Below are positions 7,846-18,253 of a stretch of 18,253 nt of DNA, piece by piece. The notes below the pieces were generated by a model. The model saw only the letters and a list, made by a program, of their open reading frames with translations, did not search any database and was not told the DNA's origin. The stretch comes from a phage, in NCBI GenBank assembly GCA_024975835.1, contig GCA_024975835.1_4840.3. One strand, written 5' to 3'. The first letter of the stretch is position 1, and every line of letters starts with the position of its first letter. A program made the position numbers and the translations under genes.

Positions 7846-8685
7846 ATGTCATATATTCTTCATGTGGATTCTGGAACCAAAATTGAAATTGAAGGCAAAG
7901 ACGTTGCTGCTATTCAGGCTGAAATCAAAGAAGCAGGTCTGATCATCGGAAACGTTACCCTGCGCCGTATGGTTGAAGGTGTTCTTCAGGCTGCCAACGG
8001 CTTCGAACTGATTGAAGGTCTGAGCGCCGAAGAGAAGGAAGAAACTCAGCAGGCTCTGGCGCAAGCCCAAGAGCAAGCCCAAGCTGAAGTATCCCTGAAA
8101 GTCGCTGAAACCGTTGATGCTGAAGCACCGATCTCTGCCGATGCATGTGAAGCCCCAGTGTCCGACGCCCCGGTAGACGCGGTTAAAGATGCAGTCAACG
8201 CGGCGCTGGAAGAAGGCAATCAGCCGTCCGACGCGAAAATCGGTTCCTTAGCGTCTTCTATGCTGAAAGAAGCATCGAAGGGTAAGACCCTGACCCCGCA
8301 GGCAGCGCTGGTAGAGCGTAAACGCCGTCACACCAAACGTGAGGAAATGGTTGACTTGGCTCGCGCTTCTAATCACGGTCCGGTCTTGGCGGCGATTGAA
8401 GCTGGTGTTGTCCCCGGCGTGTTCCTGAGCTACGTGAACCCAGACATGCGTTGGTTCCAGTTCCCGGTCACCGAACTGGCTAACCCTGAAAACCTTCACG
8501 CCCGCACCAATACGTATGTCGACGTTGCGCCTATCGTTTCCGGTGGCTGGGGCTTCAGTCTGTACGTGAACGGCAAGTCCTTCACCAAACGTCAGAAGAT
8601 CAAAGAGTCTGATGCTGAGTCTCTGGTTAAGGCGATCAATGAATGGCTTCCACAGGCTCTGGCTGAAGCGAAAGCTGCTGCGTAA
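7846..8685 (+). CDS. Hypothetical early protein (279 aa): N-terminal domain, acidic Ala/Glu/Gln-rich low-complexity linker, C-terminal domain
   Basis: ORF bracketed by the promoter at 7749-7777 and the terminator at 8716-8746; appears GC-richer with host-like codon choice by eye; no recognised family. Confidence 0.65.
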   Translation: MSYILHVDSGTKIEIEGKDVAAIQAEIKEAGLIIGNVTLRRMVEGVLQAANGFELIEGLSAEEKEETQQALAQAQEQAQAEVSLKVAETVDAEAPISADACEAPVSDAPVDAVKDAVNAALEEGNQPSDAKIGSLASSMLKEASKGKTLTPQAALVERKRRHTKREEMVDLARASNHGPVLAAIEAGVVPGVFLSYVNPDMRWFQFPVTELANPENLHARTNTYVDVAPIVSGGWGFSLYVNGKSFTKRQKIKESDAESLVKAINEWLPQALAEAKAAA

Positions 8686-8715
8686 TTTAAGTTCAGAAAC
8701 TGTTCAAAAGATGAA

Positions 8716-8746
8716 GGGGCTGCTATAATAGCAGCTCCTTTTGTTT
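8716..8746 (+). terminator. Rho-independent terminator: stem GGGGCTGCTA / TAGCAGCTCC (one G-U pair), loop TAA, then TTTTGTTT; a TATAAT hexamer (8724-8729) is embedded in the hairpin
   Basis: Read directly; lies between the stop of gene 7846..8685 and ATG 8760. Confidence 0.6.
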
Positions 8747-8759
8747 ATTGGAGCAGTTT

Positions 8760-9419
8760 ATGTCCTACTCCCTGAAGGGGTTGATGAAGCGCCCCGTCCA
8801 CACATTCTTTAAACCACCCGTCGTAAAGGGGATCTACCCAGCACGAGGGCAAATCTACTACGTCAAAGGCTCCAATGGTAGCGGTAAATCCACTGTGCCG
8901 TCTCAGCTGGCGGAGAGGGATCCTCAGGCGTATGTCGTGACCCATAATGGCAAGGTCATGCTGACTGTCTGTCCTTCGTTCAACGTGGTCTGTATCGGTA
9001 AATATGACAAGTCGAAGTCCAAGGGGGTTGATTCCCTGAAGGACACTGAGCAGATGTTGTTCGCGTTGTCTATTGCTGACCAACCAGAATACTTGAAATA
9101 TGATGTGATTTTCGAAGGTATCATTCCATCCACATTATTGAGTTCTTGGATCCCCCGTCTGACACGCCCACCACGTGAATTGGTTGTGCTCTTTATGGAC
9201 ACTCCTCTTGAAACGTGTATCACCCGCGTTAAATCACGTAACGGCGGTGTGGACTTCAATGAAAGTCTGGTGGTCGAAAAGTGGGAAAGAGTTCATGACC
9301 ATCGTCAACGACATAAAGACTTGTTCCCTACGGTAGCTGCGGGTATGATGAAGTCTCACGGCCTAACGGTAGACCAGGCTGTGATGGCATTCCTCTGTCG
9401 TGATTTTGGGAGTATCTGA
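8760..9419 (+). CDS. P-loop kinase-like protein (Walker A GSNGSGKST), 219 aa; candidate nucleotide or DNA kinase
   Basis: Walker A motif in the first 50 residues; start moved from the track's TTG 8748 to ATG 8760 (GGAG 7 nt upstream); stop overlaps the next start as TGATG. Confidence 0.6.
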   Translation: MSYSLKGLMKRPVHTFFKPPVVKGIYPARGQIYYVKGSNGSGKSTVPSQLAERDPQAYVVTHNGKVMLTVCPSFNVVCIGKYDKSKSKGVDSLKDTEQMLFALSIADQPEYLKYDVIFEGIIPSTLLSSWIPRLTRPPRELVVLFMDTPLETCITRVKSRNGGVDFNESLVVEKWERVHDHRQRHKDLFPTVAAGMMKSHGLTVDQAVMAFLCRDFGSI

Positions 9420-12124: not shown

Positions 12125-13194
12125 TGGACCGCATGCTGAAGGTTGCTAAGAAACACGATGACCAGGCTTCAGTGCTGTCCCAATCAGACGCTCTGGAACC
12201 GTCTATCATCTGTTCTACTGGTATTCCCCTGATCGACATCGCATGGTCTGGGCGTATTGACGGCGGCCTGATCTCCGGTATCAAGATGATGGTGGGTGAT
12301 TCCCGTACCTTCAAAACGATGTTCGGTCTGGTGGACGTCAAGGCGTACATGGACAAGTTCCCTGATGCTATCTGCGTCTTTGCGGACTCAGAAAAGGGTG
12401 CCAACGCTGATTACTGGACCTCTATGGGCATTGACATGGACCGCGTCCTGTACGTACCGATCGACAACGTTGAACAGACCAAGATCCGATTGCTACAGAT
12501 CCTACAGGAAGTCAAGAAAGGCGACCATGTTATAATCTTCATCGACTCTATCAGCCAACTTCCCTCCACCAAGGAAGTTGAAGATGCGATCAAAGGGAAC
12601 GACACTCAAGACATGACCCGCGCCCGTGCCCTCAACAGCTTCTGGCGTGTCATGACTCCCGAAATCAACAGCAAAAATCTCGTGTGTGTTTGGATCAACT
12701 CCTATTACGATGAGATCGGCAACCAATATGCCGAGCCTAACATCAAAGGCGGCAAACAGGGCTTCTTATCCTCCAACTTGATCTGGTTTATCACCCGTTC
12801 TCAGGTGAAGGAAGACAAAGATCTGCTGGGCTGGAACTTCAACATAAGCATCATGAAAGGCCGCCATGTCAAAGAAAAAGCCAAGCTCCCTGTCACGGTA
12901 CTGTACAACGGTGGTATTGATCGCTGGAGCGGCCTGCTTGAGATCGCTCGTGCTCTGGGTTATGTTGATATGCCGTCTTCCGGCTGGTATGTGCGTACAG
13001 CCAAGGGCGGTTTCGATCCTGAGAAGGAAAAGAAATATCAGAAGCGTCAGATGGGTGATGATTTCTGGTATCCGCTGCTGGAGAATGTCAACTTCGCCGA
13101 TGACGTGAAGAAAATGTTCGGTGTTTCTAACGGTACTGTTATGCCTGCTAACATGCTGGAGCAAATGGACCATGTTATTAACACAAGCGAATAA
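12109..13194 (+). CDS. uvsX: UvsX RecA-like recombinase (361 aa)
   Basis: Collinear with T4 UvsX: MVGDSRTFKTMFGLV vs LAGPSKSFKSNFGL, ICVFADSE vs VCLFYDSE, VIIFIDSI vs VVVFIDSL, DMTRARAL vs DMTRAKTM, YNGGIDRWSGLLEIA vs FDGGIDPYSGLLDMA. Confidence 0.9.
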   Translation: MASSLMDRMLKVAKKHDDQASVLSQSDALEPSIICSTGIPLIDIAWSGRIDGGLISGIKMMVGDSRTFKTMFGLVDVKAYMDKFPDAICVFADSEKGANADYWTSMGIDMDRVLYVPIDNVEQTKIRLLQILQEVKKGDHVIIFIDSISQLPSTKEVEDAIKGNDTQDMTRARALNSFWRVMTPEINSKNLVCVWINSYYDEIGNQYAEPNIKGGKQGFLSSNLIWFITRSQVKEDKDLLGWNFNISIMKGRHVKEKAKLPVTVLYNGGIDRWSGLLEIARALGYVDMPSSGWYVRTAKGGFDPEKEKKYQKRQMGDDFWYPLLENVNFADDVKKMFGVSNGTVMPANMLEQMDHVINTSE

Positions 13195-13501
13195 TAGTGG
13201 AGGGGGAGGAGACTCCCCCAATAACTACACAATCATCGACCCTGGTGCTGATCAGCTGGCGATCATCAAGATCACTTCTGGCAAATTCCGTGGTGTTCAA
13301 TTCCGGTTCGGCAAGGTGGCTATTAACGAAGTGGACGGCGAACCCCGCCTGTCTTTCGTGACTGATATATTGAAGAAACCATTGCGTCTGATGTTTGTGA
13401 ATTTGAAAGAAAATGACTTGTTCACTGAGGTATCAGGGGATATCCTTGTAGACCTCATGCAGCGTAATGCTCAGGAATATAATAAATTTTTGGTGGGGTA
13501 G
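13172..13501 (+). CDS. Hypothetical protein (about 109 aa) in the T4 gene 40 position between uvsX and gene 41; start uncertain
   Basis: ORF in track begins at GTG 13121 inside uvsX; the first in-frame ATG is 13172 (GGAG 11 nt upstream); assignment to gene 40 is positional only. Confidence 0.4.
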   Translation: MLLTQANNSGGGGDSPNNYTIIDPGADQLAIIKITSGKFRGVQFRFGKVAINEVDGEPRLSFVTDILKKPLRLMFVNLKENDLFTEVSGDILVDLMQRNAQEYNKFLVG

Positions 13502-13507
13502 TGGCCA

Positions 13508-14932
13508 ATGTTACTCGAATCTGTCGTGCTTTCACAGTTGATTTACAATGAAGATTACCAAAGAAAGATCCTGCCGTACCTGAAAGCCGATTATTTTGAC
13601 AACGAAGGCGAAAAGGTCATCTTTGGCCTGATTGACAGTTATACCTCAGAGTACAATGCCCGCCCGTCTGTCGAAGCACTATCTATCATTCTTGAACGGA
13701 CAAAGTTGAACGAATATGTGTTTGACCAGGCAGTGACTGCCCTGGAGAACATCAACGACAACACCTTCAATGAAGAGTGGCTGGCGAAGGAAACCGAGGC
13801 TTGGGCGCGGCAAAAAGCCGTACACAACGCAATCAAGACCGCCGTCAACATCTACGGTGACGAGAAGCGCAAGGACGAGATGAACAACATCCCGACCATG
13901 TTGCAGGAAGCCCTGGCTATCCGGTTTGATTCATACCTCGGTCACATCTATTGGGAGATGGCGGCAGAGCAGTATGACCACATGAACTCCAACGAGGCCA
14001 AGATCCCGTTCGCAGTTGAGATCTTCAATAAGGCGACACGTGGTGGCGTTGGTAAGAAGACACTGAACATCGTAACAGGTGCGATCAACGCAGGTAAGAC
14101 CACAACGCTGATTGACCTGACCGCAGGGTACTCGGAGCAGGGGCTGAACGTCTTTGTCTTCACCCTTGAAGTGGCCGAGAACGTCTGGCGACACCGTCTT
14201 GATGCCCGTATCATGCGTCGCGACTTTGAGTCTTTAGAGAAACTCACAAGGCACGAGTATATTGCAACGATAGAGAAGCTCCGCAGTCGCCAAGATGGTG
14301 CGCCCAAGGGTGATATCGTCATCAAGGAATATCCTTCTGGTACTGGACACACGGGTTTATTCCGCCGCGATATCCTTGAGTACATCCAGGCAACAGGTCG
14401 TGCTCCTGATGTTATCGTTATTGACTATCTTGGCGAAGCTGCTTCCTCGCGCCTGCCTTCCCACCTGATGCAGAACACGAACGTCTATTACACGTCTGTG
14501 GCTCGTGAGTTTCGTGCGCTGGGATTTGAGTTTGATGTCCCTGTATGGACTGGTATGCAGTTCAATCGTGAGAATCAGAATAGCACTGATGGTGGAATCA
14601 GTGATTTGGCAGATGCTATCGGTATTCCGAAGGTGGCCGACTTCATCATGGCATTCTATGCTCCTGACGAACTGGCGGCGGTCAAGAAAGCCCGAGCCTC
14701 AATACTCAAGAACCGTTATGCCAACAAGCAGAAGCTGAAATCATTCCTGTTTGGTATGGACCAAGACAAACAGATCCTGTTTGACCTGGACTGGAATGAA
14801 GTTAAGAAGGACCTGACCGAGGCTGAGGCCAAATATGTCGAAAACGTACACATCAAACATGACCTCAACAAGTCCGGGGCTGCTGCCAGCGATGAGCAGA
14901 AAGCCCAAACGGTCAATAATTGGAAATTCTAG
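13508..14932 (+). CDS. 41: Replicative DNA helicase, T4 gp41 (DnaB-like) family (474 aa)
   Basis: Walker A GAINAGKTTTL (T4 GVNVGKSLGL); SQLIYNEDYQRKILPYLKADYF vs T4 SHLIFDQAYFSKVWPYMDSEYF; IVIDYLG vs IIIVDYLG; IPKVADFIMA vs LPATADFMLA; both end in KF. Confidence 0.9.
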   Translation: MLLESVVLSQLIYNEDYQRKILPYLKADYFDNEGEKVIFGLIDSYTSEYNARPSVEALSIILERTKLNEYVFDQAVTALENINDNTFNEEWLAKETEAWARQKAVHNAIKTAVNIYGDEKRKDEMNNIPTMLQEALAIRFDSYLGHIYWEMAAEQYDHMNSNEAKIPFAVEIFNKATRGGVGKKTLNIVTGAINAGKTTTLIDLTAGYSEQGLNVFVFTLEVAENVWRHRLDARIMRRDFESLEKLTRHEYIATIEKLRSRQDGAPKGDIVIKEYPSGTGHTGLFRRDILEYIQATGRAPDVIVIDYLGEAASSRLPSHLMQNTNVYYTSVAREFRALGFEFDVPVWTGMQFNRENQNSTDGGISDLADAIGIPKVADFIMAFYAPDELAAVKKARASILKNRYANKQKLKSFLFGMDQDKQILFDLDWNEVKKDLTEAEAKYVENVHIKHDLNKSGAAASDEQKAQTVNNWKF

Positions 14933-14958
14933 GCAATTCAATAAAGCGGGTCATAGGG

Positions 14959-14964
14959 TATAAT
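14959..14964 (+). promoter_or_regulatory. Candidate -10 element GGGTATAATT, 32 nt upstream of ATG 14997; no convincing -35
   Basis: TATAAT read directly; same spacing to the start codon as the elements at 8724 and 17597. Confidence 0.3.
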
Positions 14965-14996
14965 TCTATGATCTGAATGTAAACCAGGAGCACATC

Positions 14997-15332
14997 ATGT
15001 CACACAATGATTTTATGGCTGGCCTGGTGCAGGCCGCCAAACAGGTGTGCCACACCAAACAAGCGATTGAGCTGAGTCCGGAGCAGACTCTGGAGTTCTT
15101 CAACAATCGTAAAATCTGGGAGGAATATGGAATTGGTATGATATGCCAAGAGGGTGAACTCGTACAGCTGGATCTGCCGTCATTCCCCCTTCCAGTGCGC
15201 ACTAACACAGTGGAATGGTATACGACGGAAGATGGTGTAGAGATCATCCCGAAGTTCCAGTATCACTCCATCGTAAACTTCTTTTTACGCCGTTGCGGGA
15301 CTAATCTGATCCCACAAGGTATGAGATCCTAA
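14997..15332 (+). CDS. Hypothetical protein (111 aa)
   Basis: ORF with AGGAG 6 nt upstream of the ATG; no recognised motif. Confidence 0.55.
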   Translation: MSHNDFMAGLVQAAKQVCHTKQAIELSPEQTLEFFNNRKIWEEYGIGMICQEGELVQLDLPSFPLPVRTNTVEWYTTEDGVEIIPKFQYHSIVNFFLRRCGTNLIPQGMRS

Positions 15333-15347
15333 CAAGAGGAACACCAA

Positions 15348-15662
15348 ATGTCTGTAGAACAAATCGGTTTTTATGTACTACCTTCTGATCCTGAATCCCG
15401 TCGCAAGCTGATAGGTGCGATTGAAAACTGTCGTGCCGCCCAGGTCCGCATCAAGTCGGAACAGACTTTCATTACTGAGACTCTGGCCGAGCTGGCGAAA
15501 GAGACGGGCATCAAGGCCAGCGACCTGCGCAAGGTTGTATCCGACCGCGCCAATGGAACTTACCATAAGACGATCGAAACGAGCGAGAAATATCAAGACT
15601 TGTACGAGTCTCTATTCCCGAACGCCAAGCCCGATCGAGATCCGAATGCCAGTGGCGAATAA
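15348..15662 (+). CDS. Hypothetical protein (104 aa)
   Basis: ORF with AGAGGA 7 nt upstream of the ATG; followed by a strong terminator. Confidence 0.55.
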   Translation: MSVEQIGFYVLPSDPESRRKLIGAIENCRAAQVRIKSEQTFITETLAELAKETGIKASDLRKVVSDRANGTYHKTIETSEKYQDLYESLFPNAKPDRDPNASGE

Positions 15663-15680
15663 GTCAATAGAACACCAAGA

Positions 15681-15706
15681 AGCCCAGTCAAGTACTGGGC
15701 TTTTTA
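15681..15706 (+). terminator. Rho-independent terminator: stem AGCCCAGT / ACTGGGCT, loop CAAGT, then TTTTT
   Basis: Read directly, 19 nt after the stop of gene 15348..15662. Confidence 0.75.
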
Positions 15707-15789
15707 ACTTCAATAACTTTACTTTCAAGAAATAATCGCCTAATATTTAATCTGTATTGAAGAGTTACAACTACATCATGAGGCTGGAA

Positions 15790-16983
15790 ATGAACGTCAA
15801 AACATTCAATATTCCGATCGACAATGAAGGGTTGGTAGTTGAGCGACTGAAGAAGCTCGAGCGCACTGCCGAAAGGTTGGGTGTTCCGTTTCCGACTGTG
15901 ACTTATGGTGAACCCTTCAAAACCCACACCCGCGACTTCACTGGTGAGATCCTTACTCACTGGTGGAAACCTGTTACTCTCGAAGGCGAAGGCATTGACC
16001 GCCCCGTCTCTTATGGTGGCTGGAAGATCATCGGTCAGTTCAATCACGAATATCCAAAGGTTATTCTTAACCGCCTGTCCGACAACATCAATCCCGACTT
16101 CATCCGTCGCTTCGAGGCAGAGAACGTCTCTTGGTGTCAGCATTGCAATCTAGTCATCCGTCGCAAGAACACGTATGTGATTGAAAATGAGGAAACGCAT
16201 ACCCAGATGCTGATTGGTAGCACCTGTATGCATCATTATGTGCCTCATCAGAAGTCCCTTGACGCGATTATGTCTTACTATCTGGAAATCCAAGAGTTCT
16301 TCATGCCAGACGAGGACGACCCAGAGGGTATATATCGCGTCCAAAATGAGCGCTTCGTCGACACCCACAGTTTCCTGCGCGCATGCTTCCAGGTGATGCT
16401 AGCAGGCGTGGATATCAAGTCTGAACTGTTTGACAAAGTACTGGGCTATGTCCGGTCTCATCAGAAACCAAAAGCAGGTTCCGATGAAGAGTATTTCGTA
16501 AACAAGGCACACGAATACCGTGAAGATGCCGAGTCGGAAATGTACCATATGAAGCTCTTCATCAGTGCGCTGTCCGAATCCAATGAGTTCAATGTCCGCC
16601 TGAAACGCATGTGTGAACCCGGCTATCACCTCATCAAGGATAACAACACAGTCCGCTGGGGTGCCAAGAAGTATTACGATTACATCCATCGTCCTCGTAC
16701 TGACCGCAAGGCGGAGAACAAATGGGTGGGCGAAGTCGGTGAAATGCTGGAAGTGCAAGTCAGATTCGACAAGCGCACCTTCCTCTTCTCCAATGAATAT
16801 GGTGATAGCTACCTGTTTACTTTCAAAACAGCAGAAGGTAATACAATTACCTGGAAGACCTCTTATATGGATACAGAGTTCTTGCAGGGTGATATGATCA
16901 TCCGTGGTCGTGTCAAAGAACTGACTGAGTACAACGGCGTTAAACAAACTCAGGTCACCAGAGCCAAATTGAGGAAGTTATGA
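15790..16983 (+). CDS. Hypothetical protein (about 397 aa) with a central Cys/His cluster (WCQHCNLV ... STCMHHY) and a beta-rich C-terminal region; function unknown
   Basis: Long ORF; start set at ATG 15790 (GAGG 6 nt upstream); in-frame ATG 15778 and the track's TTG 15757 are alternatives; no catalytic motif confidently recognised. Confidence 0.6.
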   Translation: MNVKTFNIPIDNEGLVVERLKKLERTAERLGVPFPTVTYGEPFKTHTRDFTGEILTHWWKPVTLEGEGIDRPVSYGGWKIIGQFNHEYPKVILNRLSDNINPDFIRRFEAENVSWCQHCNLVIRRKNTYVIENEETHTQMLIGSTCMHHYVPHQKSLDAIMSYYLEIQEFFMPDEDDPEGIYRVQNERFVDTHSFLRACFQVMLAGVDIKSELFDKVLGYVRSHQKPKAGSDEEYFVNKAHEYREDAESEMYHMKLFISALSESNEFNVRLKRMCEPGYHLIKDNNTVRWGAKKYYDYIHRPRTDRKAENKWVGEVGEMLEVQVRFDKRTFLFSNEYGDSYLFTFKTAEGNTITWKTSYMDTEFLQGDMIIRGRVKELTEYNGVKQTQVTRAKLRKL

Positions 16984-17093
16984 ATTTGATTGAGTTTGTC
17001 CTGAAGTCGTTCGCCTTTGGTCTGATAGCATGTGGGATGATTACAGCTATGCTTCTCATCATAGCCCTGGTCGTCCCCTTTAAGAGGAAATAG
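16980..17093 (+). CDS. Small hydrophobic single-pass membrane peptide (37 aa), not in the supplied track
   Basis: Hand translation gives MNLIEFVLKSFAFGLIACGMITAMLLIIALVVPFKRK; ATG overlaps the upstream stop as ATGA; stop lies 2 nt before the next gene's ATG. Confidence 0.35.
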   Translation: MNLIEFVLKSFAFGLIACGMITAMLLIIALVVPFKRK

Positions 17094-17095
17094 AG

Positions 17096-17296
17096 ATGAA
17101 ACGTGAAATCATGGATGTGTACGAGCCAGGATCTTGTTGTCCTGGCCATGACAAGTATCCATCCGATACTTACAAGAATCGACGTTCCAAAGCGCAACGC
17201 TCCAAGAGCATTAAGAAGGAGCATCGCCACGCTCGTCGTGTCAAGCGTCTGGGGCTGAAATCTGACCTGAATACCATTACGCGGGAGGACTTTTGA
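17096..17296 (+). CDS. Small, highly basic protein (66 aa) with a GSCCPGH motif
   Basis: ORF with AAGAGGA 7 nt upstream of the ATG; Lys/Arg-rich; stop overlaps the next start as TGATG. Confidence 0.5.
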   Translation: MKREIMDVYEPGSCCPGHDKYPSDTYKNRRSKAQRSKSIKKEHRHARRVKRLGLKSDLNTITREDF

Positions 17297-17508
17297 TGGA
17301 ATGTTCATGCGGAGGGCAGGGCACAAGTGCCTACATGCCATTCACCACTGTGAAGGAAGCCGAAGCCGCTGGATTTGCCGTGGACAAGGCTCCCTGTGTA
17401 ATCGCCACGAAGGATTGCCCGTGCTGTAAGAGGCACTCTCAGGACGTCTTCTACGCCCCTGATGCGCGTCCGGCTACGGTCAATCTGCTCTCACTGATGA
17501 GGAAGTGA
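17296..17508 (+). CDS. Small cysteine-rich protein (70 aa; CSCG ... CPCC), probable metal-binding
   Basis: ORF with GGGAGG 7 nt upstream of ATG 17296; six Cys residues in clustered motifs. Confidence 0.5.
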   Translation: MECSCGGQGTSAYMPFTTVKEAEAAGFAVDKAPCVIATKDCPCCKRHSQDVFYAPDARPATVNLLSLMRK

Positions 17509-17589
17509 CATGCGCAAGTATTTCAACTGGTTGTTCTGTATACCGTCGCTGAGTGCTGAGATTCGTTCCCTGATAATATATTGAAGTCT

Positions 17590-17622
17590 CCAGGGTTATA
17601 ATAGCAGCACATATAACCCTGG
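17590..17622 (+). promoter_or_regulatory. Hairpin with 11-bp perfect stem CCAGGGTTATA / TATAACCCTGG and 11-nt loop; contains TATAAT (17597-17602) and its 3' arm overlaps the ligase ribosome-binding site
   Basis: Read directly; no T-tract follows, so it is not a terminator; shares the 12-mer TATAATAGCAGC with the element at 8724-8735. Confidence 0.4.
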
Positions 17623-17631
17623 AGGCACCAC

Positions 17632-18253
17632 ATGATCCCTATCCTTGAAATAGTCCACCGACTTCGCGAAACCAAAGGCAGCAATGCGAAGAAAGCCGTG
17701 CTGACCGAAGCATTCAAGAACAACCCAGACTTGGCAGACTTCCTGCAGTATGTCTATGACCCAATGACGTCGTTCTATCGGACTGAGTTGAAGCTCAGCG
17801 CGTATCCTCGCATGCTCGTCCGTGAGAAGACTGATGACATCAGCGAAGTCTATGACGTCCTCGACCAGATGGCGCAGCGTCTTGTCGGTGGCCAAAAGGC
17901 TGATGCCCTGTTGGCCTCTGTCGCCCTGAAGATGGATCCCCAATACCACGAACTCATTCAGATGATCCTAGACCGTGATATCAAGGCGGGTATCGCTGAG
18001 AAGGGCATCAACGCTGCATTCAACGCCGCCGGAGGCACTGGACGCCTGATCAACATTCTTCCGTATCATCGTTATGACAACATGACGATTGACCTGCTGA
18101 AGAAGATGGACTTCAAGCGCGGCGTCTACAGCCAGCTGAAGTCAGACGGTATGTTCGCCAACATCATATGTCGGTACAATAAAGAGCCTGAGATTCGCTC
18201 TCGCTCCGGTTCCCTTATCGCAGGTGGTTCGGTTGATAACCTTTCACTGGTGT
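17632..18253 (+). CDS. 30: ATP-dependent DNA ligase, T4 gp30-like; 5' partial, continues beyond the window
   Basis: Hand translation has no stop to the window edge; contains the adenylation motif QLKSDG (T4 ligase QLKADG with active-site Lys); GGAGG 6 nt upstream of the ATG. Confidence 0.8.
   Translation, partial: MIPILEIVHRLRETKGSNAKKAVLTEAFKNNPDLADFLQYVYDPMTSFYRTELKLSAYPRMLVREKTDDISEVYDVLDQMAQRLVGGQKADALLASVALKMDPQYHELIQMILDRDIKAGIAEKGINAAFNAAGGTGRLINILPYHRYDNMTIDLLKKMDFKRGVYSQLKSDGMFANIICRYNKEPEIRSRSGSLIAGGSVDNLSLV

Follow-up and report, generated by a model that had tools for sequence, protein, structure and literature searches.

We analysed an 18,253-nt window (the whole stretch of DNA presented here, contig GCA_024975835.1_4840.3 of phage assembly GCA_024975835.1), in which six open reading frames (ORFs) encoding proteins of 111, 104, 397, 37, 66 and 70 amino acids (aa) occupy the interval between a gp41/DnaB-type helicase gene, ending at 14932, and an ATP-dependent ligase gene, starting at 17632 (Table 1). 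The positions and plus-strand orientation of the six ORFs, the terminator separating the second from the third and the identity of both flanking genes, as given in an initial annotation made from the sequence alone, were all confirmed, as were the hydrophobic, basic and Cys-rich character of the three smallest products. The main subject of this report is the 397-aa protein, a member of the phrog_2319 family.

When bases 14900–17600 were compared by megablast with GenBank phage records, 141 records matched, the top matches being Enterobacter phage fGh-Ecl02 and Escherichia phages RPN242, A221 and AV101 (97–98% identity). The annotated relatives are Ackermannviridae, mostly Agtrevirus, with fGh-Ecl02 classed as a Kuttervirus; judged by sequence, the window phage is an Agtrevirus-like member of this family. 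In the window and in its relatives the genes run gp32, thymidylate synthase, deoxynucleoside monophosphate kinase, dUTPase, ACT-like protein, UvsX, a small ORF, gp41/DnaB helicase, the block and the ATP-dependent ligase; a gp59-like helicase loader after the ligase gene was seen in the relatives only. The window phage encodes a gp32-type single-stranded DNA-binding protein (SSB), and UvsX and UvsY are also present in the phage.

A search of the PHROG collection matched every ORF end to end with a family of its own (E values from 5e-159 to 5e-25). In comparison with phage CBA120, the ratio of nonsynonymous to synonymous substitution rates (dN/dS) was 0.07, 0.08 and 0.12 for the genes of the 37-, 104- and 70-aa proteins and remained within 0.07–0.12 with the 66-aa gene included; dS was saturated for the 111-aa and 397-aa genes, whose products are 58% and 70% identical to those of CBA120. 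The low ratios of the four unsaturated ORFs, together with the PHROG matches, indicate that the ORFs are real genes, and the block is under purifying selection as measured in these four. The 397-aa gene starts with the ATG at 15790, 6 nt past a GAGG ribosome-binding site (RBS), and the same start is annotated in relatives; an alternative upstream TTG would give 408 aa rather than 397. The last four genes had been described as linked throughout by overlapping stop and start codons. This holds for two junctions: the 397-aa gene overlaps the 37-aa gene in ATGA, and the 66-aa gene overlaps the 70-aa gene in TGATG. The 37- and 66-aa genes are separated by a 2-nt gap. Likewise, the block had been called unassignable, which stands for five of the six products, to which Pfam, NCBIfam, PADLOC and Protein Data Bank (PDB) sequence searches assigned no function, but not for the DsbA/GapR-like 104-aa protein.

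Table 1. Features of the helicase–ligase interval (positions in the window; pI, isoelectric point; GRAVY, grand average of hydropathy; dashes within motifs join residues)
Feature	Position	Strand	Remarks
Promoter-like hairpin (predicted), 6-bp stem, TATAAT in loop	14951..14971	+	26 nt 5' of the 111-aa gene
111-aa ORF, acidic, pI 5.3	14997..15332	+	phrog_3733, E 3e-52
104-aa ORF, DsbA/GapR-like, putative transcription regulator	15348..15662	+	phrog_639 'transcriptional regulator', E 4e-31
Intrinsic terminator, 12-bp stem, 3' arm ending UUUUU	15677..15712 (hairpin 15677-15705)	+	between ORF 2 and ORF 3
397-aa ORF	15790..16983	+	phrog_2319, E 5e-159
Zinc-ribbon segment (predicted), C116-x-H118-C119 ... 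R125 ... G143-x2-C146-x2-H149	16135..16236	+	residues ~114-150 of the 397-aa protein
C-terminal OB-fold domain (predicted)	16723..16980	+	residues ~312-397 of the 397-aa protein
37-aa single-pass membrane peptide (predicted)	16980..17093	+	GRAVY +1.55; phrog_6569, E 5e-25
66-aa very basic protein, pI 10.0, GSCCPGH	17096..17296	+	phrog_5428, E 2e-35
70-aa protein, six Cys	17296..17508	+	phrog_4789, E 2e-44
Hairpin, 15-bp, at 3' block edge; TATAAT in 5' arm/loop, ligase RBS GGAGG in 3' arm	17586..17626	+	

The phrog_2319 family, its predicted domains and its genomic context

A word-indexed search for relatives of the 397-aa protein retrieved only ~20 close clusters; an exhaustive profile search, which covered 1.84 billion cluster representatives (50%-identity clusters), found 8,518 representatives at E ≤ 1e-3, of which 4,351 also passed E ≤ 1e-10. 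Of the best 150, nearly all are 370–440 residues long and aligned almost from end to end. Ten diverse members all fell into phrog_2319, a family of unknown function, and matched no Pfam family, and five longer homologues carried no recognisable extra Pfam domain that would indicate a domain fusion. Among GenBank phages, the family is found in Ackermannviridae, T4-like phages of Vibrio (nt-1, for example), Aeromonas Angelvirus, Caulobacter phage phiCbK, Rhodobacter phage RcXuper and the 309-kb Tunturiibacter phage Tunturi_5. The IMG/VR contigs that carry it include some of 420–560 kb and others of ~20–55 kb, among the latter integrase-carrying temperate phages.

The models of the 397-aa protein consist of a beta-alpha-beta-rich N-domain (residues 1–110), a zinc-ribbon-like hairpin (~114–150), ~140 residues of helices (~157–300) and a C-terminal beta-barrel (~312–397). 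The full-length AlphaFold model has a pLDDT of 78 and a pTM of 0.42, and the model of residues 1–185, built from a 50-sequence alignment, a pLDDT of 90. The C-terminal barrel of the model is five-stranded and closed, with OB topology. The central Cys/His site and beta-rich C-terminus noticed in the initial annotation are thus borne out, the latter as an OB fold. Its statement that no zinc ribbon was visible by eye does not stand, since the Cys cluster looks like one: in an alignment of 166 diverse members C116, C119 and C146 are conserved in 100% of sequences, R125 and G143 in 99% and H118 in 96%, and the same group is invariant in two further family alignments. At position 149 the Ackermannviridae members have His, and 73% of the family has Asp. 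In the OB domain, W355, K376, Q386, T387 and R391 are conserved in 92–99% of the 166 members. The Cys segment also gives weak matches to ribosomal protein L36-type sequences in Pfam, NCBIfam and the PDB (E 0.07–2, over a ~20-residue motif). One JGI record names a phrog_2319 homologue 'ribosomal protein L36'. We rejected homology with L36, as the similarity covers no more than this ~20-residue motif of a phage protein 400 residues long.

No significant match came from PDB sequence searches, whether these used single sequences or N-domain and whole-family profiles of the 397-aa protein. Comparison of folds, in turn, showed the OB domain to be RPA-like and RecG-wedge-like (archaeal RPA, 3e0e; RPA70, 1fgu; RecG, 1gm5). 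A Foldseek search of BFVD returned the family itself and shorter phage proteins resembling it in the C-terminal part, very few of them characterised; the full-length matches are without exception uncharacterised phage proteins.

In Ackermannviridae, the phrog_2319 gene lies between the helicase and ligase genes, near UvsX. On the 140-kb JGI contig Ga0643553_000030, which carries a copy 24% identical to ours, it is located ~4 kb downstream of genes for gp32, UvsX and DnaB. Two genes separate it there from the helicase gene; they encode a 355-aa protein (2962-4029 of the locus) with a weak HNH match and a 538-aa protein (5335-6951 of the locus) of phrog_1745, 'DNA transfer protein', with a weak metallophosphoesterase match. 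In Tunturi_5, the gene directly downstream of the phrog_2319 homologue, gp317 (6115-6945 of the locus), is labelled 'DefenseFinder protein' in GenBank. An all-against-all BLAST of the neighbours of eight diverse loci found none in common, except the helicase in Ackermannviridae-like contigs. For a wider view, IMG/VR loci were collected with a 16-sequence alignment, and 759 neighbours from 70 of 80 loci were clustered and counted over 33 lineages defined at 70% identity. The recurrent neighbours were an SNF2 helicase (7/33 lineages), a CCA-adding enzyme and an HNH nuclease (4/33 each), and a NADAR protein and a staphylococcal-type nuclease (3/33 each). In the largest lineage, the genes are ordered as integrase, repressor, small ORF, phrog_2319, helix-turn-helix regulators, topoisomerase-like protein, SNF2 helicase and VRR-NUC nuclease. 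In temperate phages phrog_2319 is the first large early gene, and no canonical SSB or annealing protein was found in the 7 kb covered. We therefore regard the phrog_2319 gene as a stand-alone early gene, placed among genes of nucleic-acid enzymes and having no fixed partner.

Candidate roles of the 397-aa protein

We read the 397-aa protein as a stand-alone zinc and OB-fold protein that binds single-stranded nucleic acid and acts in phage DNA metabolism, a reading to which we assign a probability of roughly 0.5; we are much more confident of its structural part than of the cellular role. The protein would hold one structural zinc through C116, C119, C146 and His/Asp149, and its OB face would bind single-stranded nucleic acid by means of W355, K376, Q386, T387 and R391. 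The ligand would most likely be single-stranded DNA (ssDNA), in preference to RNA, at forks, gaps or recombination intermediates. The protein would work alone, as an accessory factor in the replication, recombination or repair of phage DNA; such a role is suggested by the neighbouring UvsX, helicase and ligase genes and by the SNF2 and VRR-NUC context elsewhere.

Several observations weigh against this reading. A gp32-type SSB is already encoded by the phage, which would make a role as SSB redundant. The anticodon-binding domains of aspartyl- and asparaginyl-tRNA synthetases (AspRS/AsnRS) score nearly as high as RPA in the fold comparison, so the OB fold alone cannot tell DNA from RNA or protein ligands, and with a pTM of only 0.42 for the whole model the relative placement of the domains is not fixed. 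As to the genetic context, the copies of nt-1 and Aeromonas phage AsFcp_4 are situated in an accessory region near capsid genes (bordered by uvsW in nt-1), that of phiCbK lies among small unknown genes outside the replication cluster, and no neighbour is common to more than 7 of the 33 lineages. Literature searches found no paper on the genes of the block or on any phrog_2319 member. Only tentatively do we extend this reading to the family as a whole, in which case phrog_2319 might represent an unrecognised, very widespread class of phage ssDNA-handling proteins, built of a new N-terminal domain joined to a zinc ribbon and an RPA-like OB fold, with a distinct step in replication or recombination, ranging from 35-kb temperate to 560-kb jumbo phages, with the micro-proteins of Ackermannviridae as lineage-specific partners. 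That step could, for example, be fork or gap recognition, recruitment of helicase or ligase, or a new annealing or mediator activity.

The initial annotation had raised an anti-defence function for the block. In such an anti-defence or host-takeover operon, the 397-aa protein and the micro-proteins would neutralise host immunity, for instance through binding of a host protein or by shielding ssDNA or some other nucleic-acid trigger. The variability of the helicase–ligase slot, where close relatives differ in whether they have the 66-aa gene and a 113-aa ORF and where CBA120 carries three more small ORFs, would fit this, as would the ~60% identity of the 66-aa gene product across unrelated families, which is reminiscent of mobile accessory genes. 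The phrog_2319 gene of temperate phages, as the first large early gene, stands beside the lysogeny switch, the copies of phiCbK and Tunturi_5 are near genes labelled anti-restriction and DefenseFinder, and a NADAR gene is the neighbour in 3 of the 33 lineages. We nevertheless consider this explanation unlikely. The 400-residue architecture is kept across thousands of clusters together with invariant putative ligand-contact residues, and conservation of this kind, from end to end, looks like adaptation to a universal ligand such as nucleic acid and not like an arms race. Five of the six genes occur in ~216–290 genomes of the family, which is core-like rather than accessory. The PADLOC defence-system models, which do not cover counter-defence proteins, gave only partial and non-significant matches (E 0.003–0.03; PtuB, E 0.012; RT_III-A, E 0.003), so that nothing in these searches points to the function proposed earlier. 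A protein directed at RNA or tRNA appears distinctly unlikely to us as well. On this view, a KH-like N-domain and the OB fold would serve to bind tRNA or mRNA, and the protein would act in RNA processing or in the repair or maturation of tRNA. The AspRS-type resemblance of the OB fold agrees with this, as do the gene for a CCA-adding tRNA nucleotidyltransferase next to phrog_2319 in 4 of the 33 IMG/VR lineages and in Vibrio phage nt-1, that for RtcB ~3 kb away in phiCbK and that for RNA ligase 2 ~3 kb away in AsFcp_4, each of them a weak signal. Yet the order of secondary-structure elements in the N-domain is unlike that of a classical KH domain, the genes of RNA enzymes are several genes distant and found in a minority of lineages, the neighbours in Ackermannviridae are DNA enzymes, and the window has neither a tRNA gene nor an Rfam match.

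Database labels raise another candidate, since the records of PQ306799 and Tunturi_5 name the gene 'RecT-like ssDNA annealing protein'; the start of the temperate early operon is a frequent site of recombination genes, and the Ackermannviridae gene adjoins the UvsX/helicase/ligase cluster. We could not reproduce this annotation, as no Pfam RecT or other annealing family was matched at E ≤ 1 and no Rad52-like annealing fold was recognised. The phage already has UvsX and UvsY, and, to our knowledge, RecT-type proteins have neither an OB fold nor a zinc ribbon. Altogether, a RecT-like single-strand annealing protein seems highly improbable. What is least credible is a divergent primase or priming factor in the position of T4 gene 61. 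In T4, gene 61 (primase) comes after the gene 41 helicase, and the initial annotation had accordingly implied a gap in the primase position and suggested a divergent priming function. The 397-aa gene does follow a gp41-type helicase gene, its product has a predicted zinc ribbon, and one BFVD match, over 124 aligned columns, is a metagenomic protein bearing a T7 primase-helicase PDB title. However, PQ306799, a 98%-identical relative, encodes a full-length T4 gp61-type primase, cecavS50_079 (352 aa), ~25 kb from the block; its match to the T4 primase chain 8dvf_H of the PDB is full-length (E 1e-42), and it also matches phrog_47 (E 3e-80). This placement is that of the relative, the window itself spanning 18 kb of its own genome. 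With a canonical primase elsewhere in so close a relative, there is no primase gap at the block. The 166-member alignment contains no conserved acidic catalytic motif, and the 397-aa protein was rejected as a primase, as it matches no primase model and has no TOPRIM catalytic domain. The earlier observation that none of the six products is a primase is upheld. Nor does the block as a whole stand in for a primase or form one functional system.

Transcription, small proteins and plasticity of the block

The hairpin between the 104- and 397-aa genes has a folding free energy of -16.8 kcal/mol (z -4.9; 0 of 200 shuffled sequences fold as well), which together with the U run makes it a credible intrinsic terminator; a separate terminator scan listed the same hairpin as a minus-strand site (15702-15680). 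Its position divides the block into two plus four genes, so that, as far as the sequence tells, the block is two transcription units and not one co-inherited operon, contrary to the single six-gene operon proposed at the outset. Unit 1, for which the hairpin upstream of the 111-aa gene is a predicted promoter-like element, would comprise the lineage-specific 111-aa protein and the DsbA/GapR-like regulator, and would end at the terminator. Unit 2 would encode the phrog_2319 protein followed, in tight coupling, by the membrane peptide, the basic protein with its Cys-Cys/His/His-x-His residues and the four-cysteine protein.

The hairpin at the 3' edge of the block is more stable (-24.8 kcal/mol, z -7.5) and is conserved before the ligase genes of Agtrevirus relatives and of CBA120. 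It would mask the ligase RBS on read-through transcripts, but not on transcripts starting inside the hairpin. In T4, some late genes use such an RBS-hiding hairpin. Four of the seven TATAAT hexamers on the plus strand of the window are placed inside perfect hairpins (stems of 6–13 bp) just 5' of genes, namely at 3721-3738 (gp32 gene), 8719-8735 (ORF at 8748), 14951-14971 (111-aa gene) and 17588-17624 (ligase gene). They look like instances of a promoter or regulatory design that the phage uses repeatedly.

The distribution of the smaller genes was determined by tblastn against 50,697 phage records. The 111-aa gene was found in 272 records, the 104-aa gene in 290, the 37-aa gene in 216, the 66-aa gene in 147 and the 70-aa gene in 279, those of the 111-, 37- and 70-aa proteins exclusively in phages of Ackermannviridae-type hosts. 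Such counts, combined with confinement to the family, show that the block is mostly core at the level of Ackermannviridae, in whose records its genes appear hundreds of times as 'hypothetical protein'. Joint inheritance of the genes was not seen outside the family, where they travel separately.

The helicase–ligase interval itself varies among relatives. The 66-aa gene is missing from most close Agtrevirus relatives and present in fGh-Ecl02, EspM4VN and Kuttervirus. CBA120 has three additional small ORFs in the interval and a divergent metagenomic relative five. Compared with its closest relatives, the window lacks, at 17536-17572, a 626-bp segment with a 113-aa ORF located between the 70-aa and ligase genes (8436-9061 of the locus compared); a 24-codon ORF (17510-17584) is left in its place.

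Of the two proteins of unit 1, that of 111 aa matched nothing in Pfam, NCBIfam or PADLOC. We read the 104-aa protein, from its sequence, as a distant DsbA/GapR-like small DNA-binding protein and putative regulator. The window copy matches Pfam Phage_DsbA (PF11126) with 13.7 bits, below the cut-off of 25 (E 0.074, profile positions 5–66 of 67), and among five family members of down to 27% identity four match Phage_DsbA (best E 8.4e-5) and one GapR_DNA-bd. Its family profile gave nothing significant against PDB sequences. The homologue in Vibrio phage VP-1 is encoded directly 3' of the helicase gene and that in Pseudomonas phage pf16 one small ORF past a 471-aa gene taken as helicase; in T4-type phages tblastn found no match at E ≤ 1e-3.

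Among the micro-proteins of unit 2, the 37-aa peptide is conserved in Agtrevirus, Kuttervirus and Limestonevirus, where its gene is translationally coupled to that of the 397-aa protein. In CBA120 this membrane-peptide gene (37/38 codons; 3885-4001 of the locus) is intact and unannotated. The 66-aa protein has invariant C14, C15, H18, H43 and H45 and keeps its MKREI and KKEHRH-x-RR motifs at ~60% identity across Ackermannviridae, Felixounavirus and the T4-like Tegunavirus fHe-Yen9-01; its gene was detected in Kuttervirus, Felixounavirus, Tegunavirus and in Providencia, Salicola and Rhizobium phages. On this sequence evidence, it is patchy in distribution and apparently shared horizontally. In the window, 336 nt separate it from the ligase gene downstream of it. 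In Escherichia phage fjerdesal (Felixounavirus), an unannotated 62-codon ORF (2501-2689 of the locus), whose product is 61% identical to the 66-aa protein, starts at the ligase stop codon. With two cases, that of the window and that of Felixounavirus, the adjacency to ligase is suggestive only. The start of the fjerdesal ligase gene is overlapped by a different small Cys-rich ORF of 72 aa, itself annotated 'DNA ligase'. Putative small zinc-type proteins are encoded next to ligase genes in two unrelated phage families.

The 70-aa protein is, by sequence, a putative small zinc-binding protein, with C3-x-C5 and C41-x2-C44 invariant in a five-sequence alignment reaching down to 31% identity. Searches of PDB sequences with its family profile gave nothing significant, and it bears no similarity to the small Cys-rich ORF preceding the Felixounavirus ligase gene. 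We rejected two other assignments. An N-terminal extension of the ligase is at odds with the phrog_114 match of only E 0.006 and with the 279 genomes, in all of which it is a separate small gene, so that the 'DNA ligase' labels on its homologues represent annotation carry-over. The Ada-like 'sunset' zinc domain of NCBIfam was matched by one of five members only.

Upstream of the block, between the UvsX and helicase genes, the window has an ORF at 13121-13501 (126 aa from a GTG start, ~110 aa in the annotation of relatives) that matches phrog_3998, of unknown function, and no Pfam family. On the T4 map gene 40 occupies the corresponding interval. Scans of the window for tRNA genes and Rfam families were both empty.

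Significance and comparison with known proteins

The block itself is ordinary, being composed of conserved hypothetical genes of a much-sequenced family whose sequences have been deposited many times. It belongs to the replication and recombination region of Ackermannviridae and resembles any run of small early or middle genes in such a T4-like region. By contrast, phrog_2319 is among the larger phage families for which there is no function, Pfam model or solved structure. The predicted domain map designates residues for mutagenesis (C116, H118, C119, R125, C146, W355, K376, T387 and R391), and tractable phages carrying the gene include CBA120, Agtrevirus AV101, Vibrio phage nt-1 and phiCbK. 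Once worked out, the role of phrog_2319 would allow thousands of phage genomes to be better annotated and might add a component to T4-type replication or recombination. The 66-aa basic protein, found in three unrelated families and twice beside a ligase gene, offers another small target for inexpensive experiments.

The 104-aa protein is similar in size to T4 DsbA (PF11126) and GapR-like proteins, four of five family members match the whole PF11126 profile, and PHROGs places it in the transcription regulation class. Unlike them, the window copy scores below the Pfam cut-off, and its gene adjoins the helicase gene; on the T4 map dsbA is not beside the helicase gene.

With DnaG and T4 gp61-type primases the 397-aa protein shares only the map position after the replicative helicase and a zinc-binding motif. 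In the primases an N-terminal zinc domain is followed directly by the RNA polymerase domain, whereas in the 397-aa protein the ribbon at residues 114–150 stands between an alpha/beta domain on its N-terminal side and helices and the OB fold on its C-terminal side. The zinc ribbon of L36 and that predicted here have in common the pattern of CxxC, beta-hairpin and C-x2-H/D. The OB domains of RPA and the RecG wedge resemble that of the 397-aa protein in fold at only 7–17% sequence identity, and Pfam OB families detect none of it; moreover, the 397-aa protein has a 300-residue N-terminal extension made up of alpha/beta, zinc-ribbon and helical parts. We know of no characterised SSB, RPA or RecG with such an extension. 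The overall architecture, as modelled, is without a characterised counterpart, and we file the protein among the OB-fold nucleic-acid-binding kind. T4 gp32 is comparable in that it, too, is a phage protein with a zinc site and an OB fold, both of them predicted in the case of the 397-aa protein, and its gene, like the 397-aa gene, lies near those of UvsX and a gp41-type helicase.

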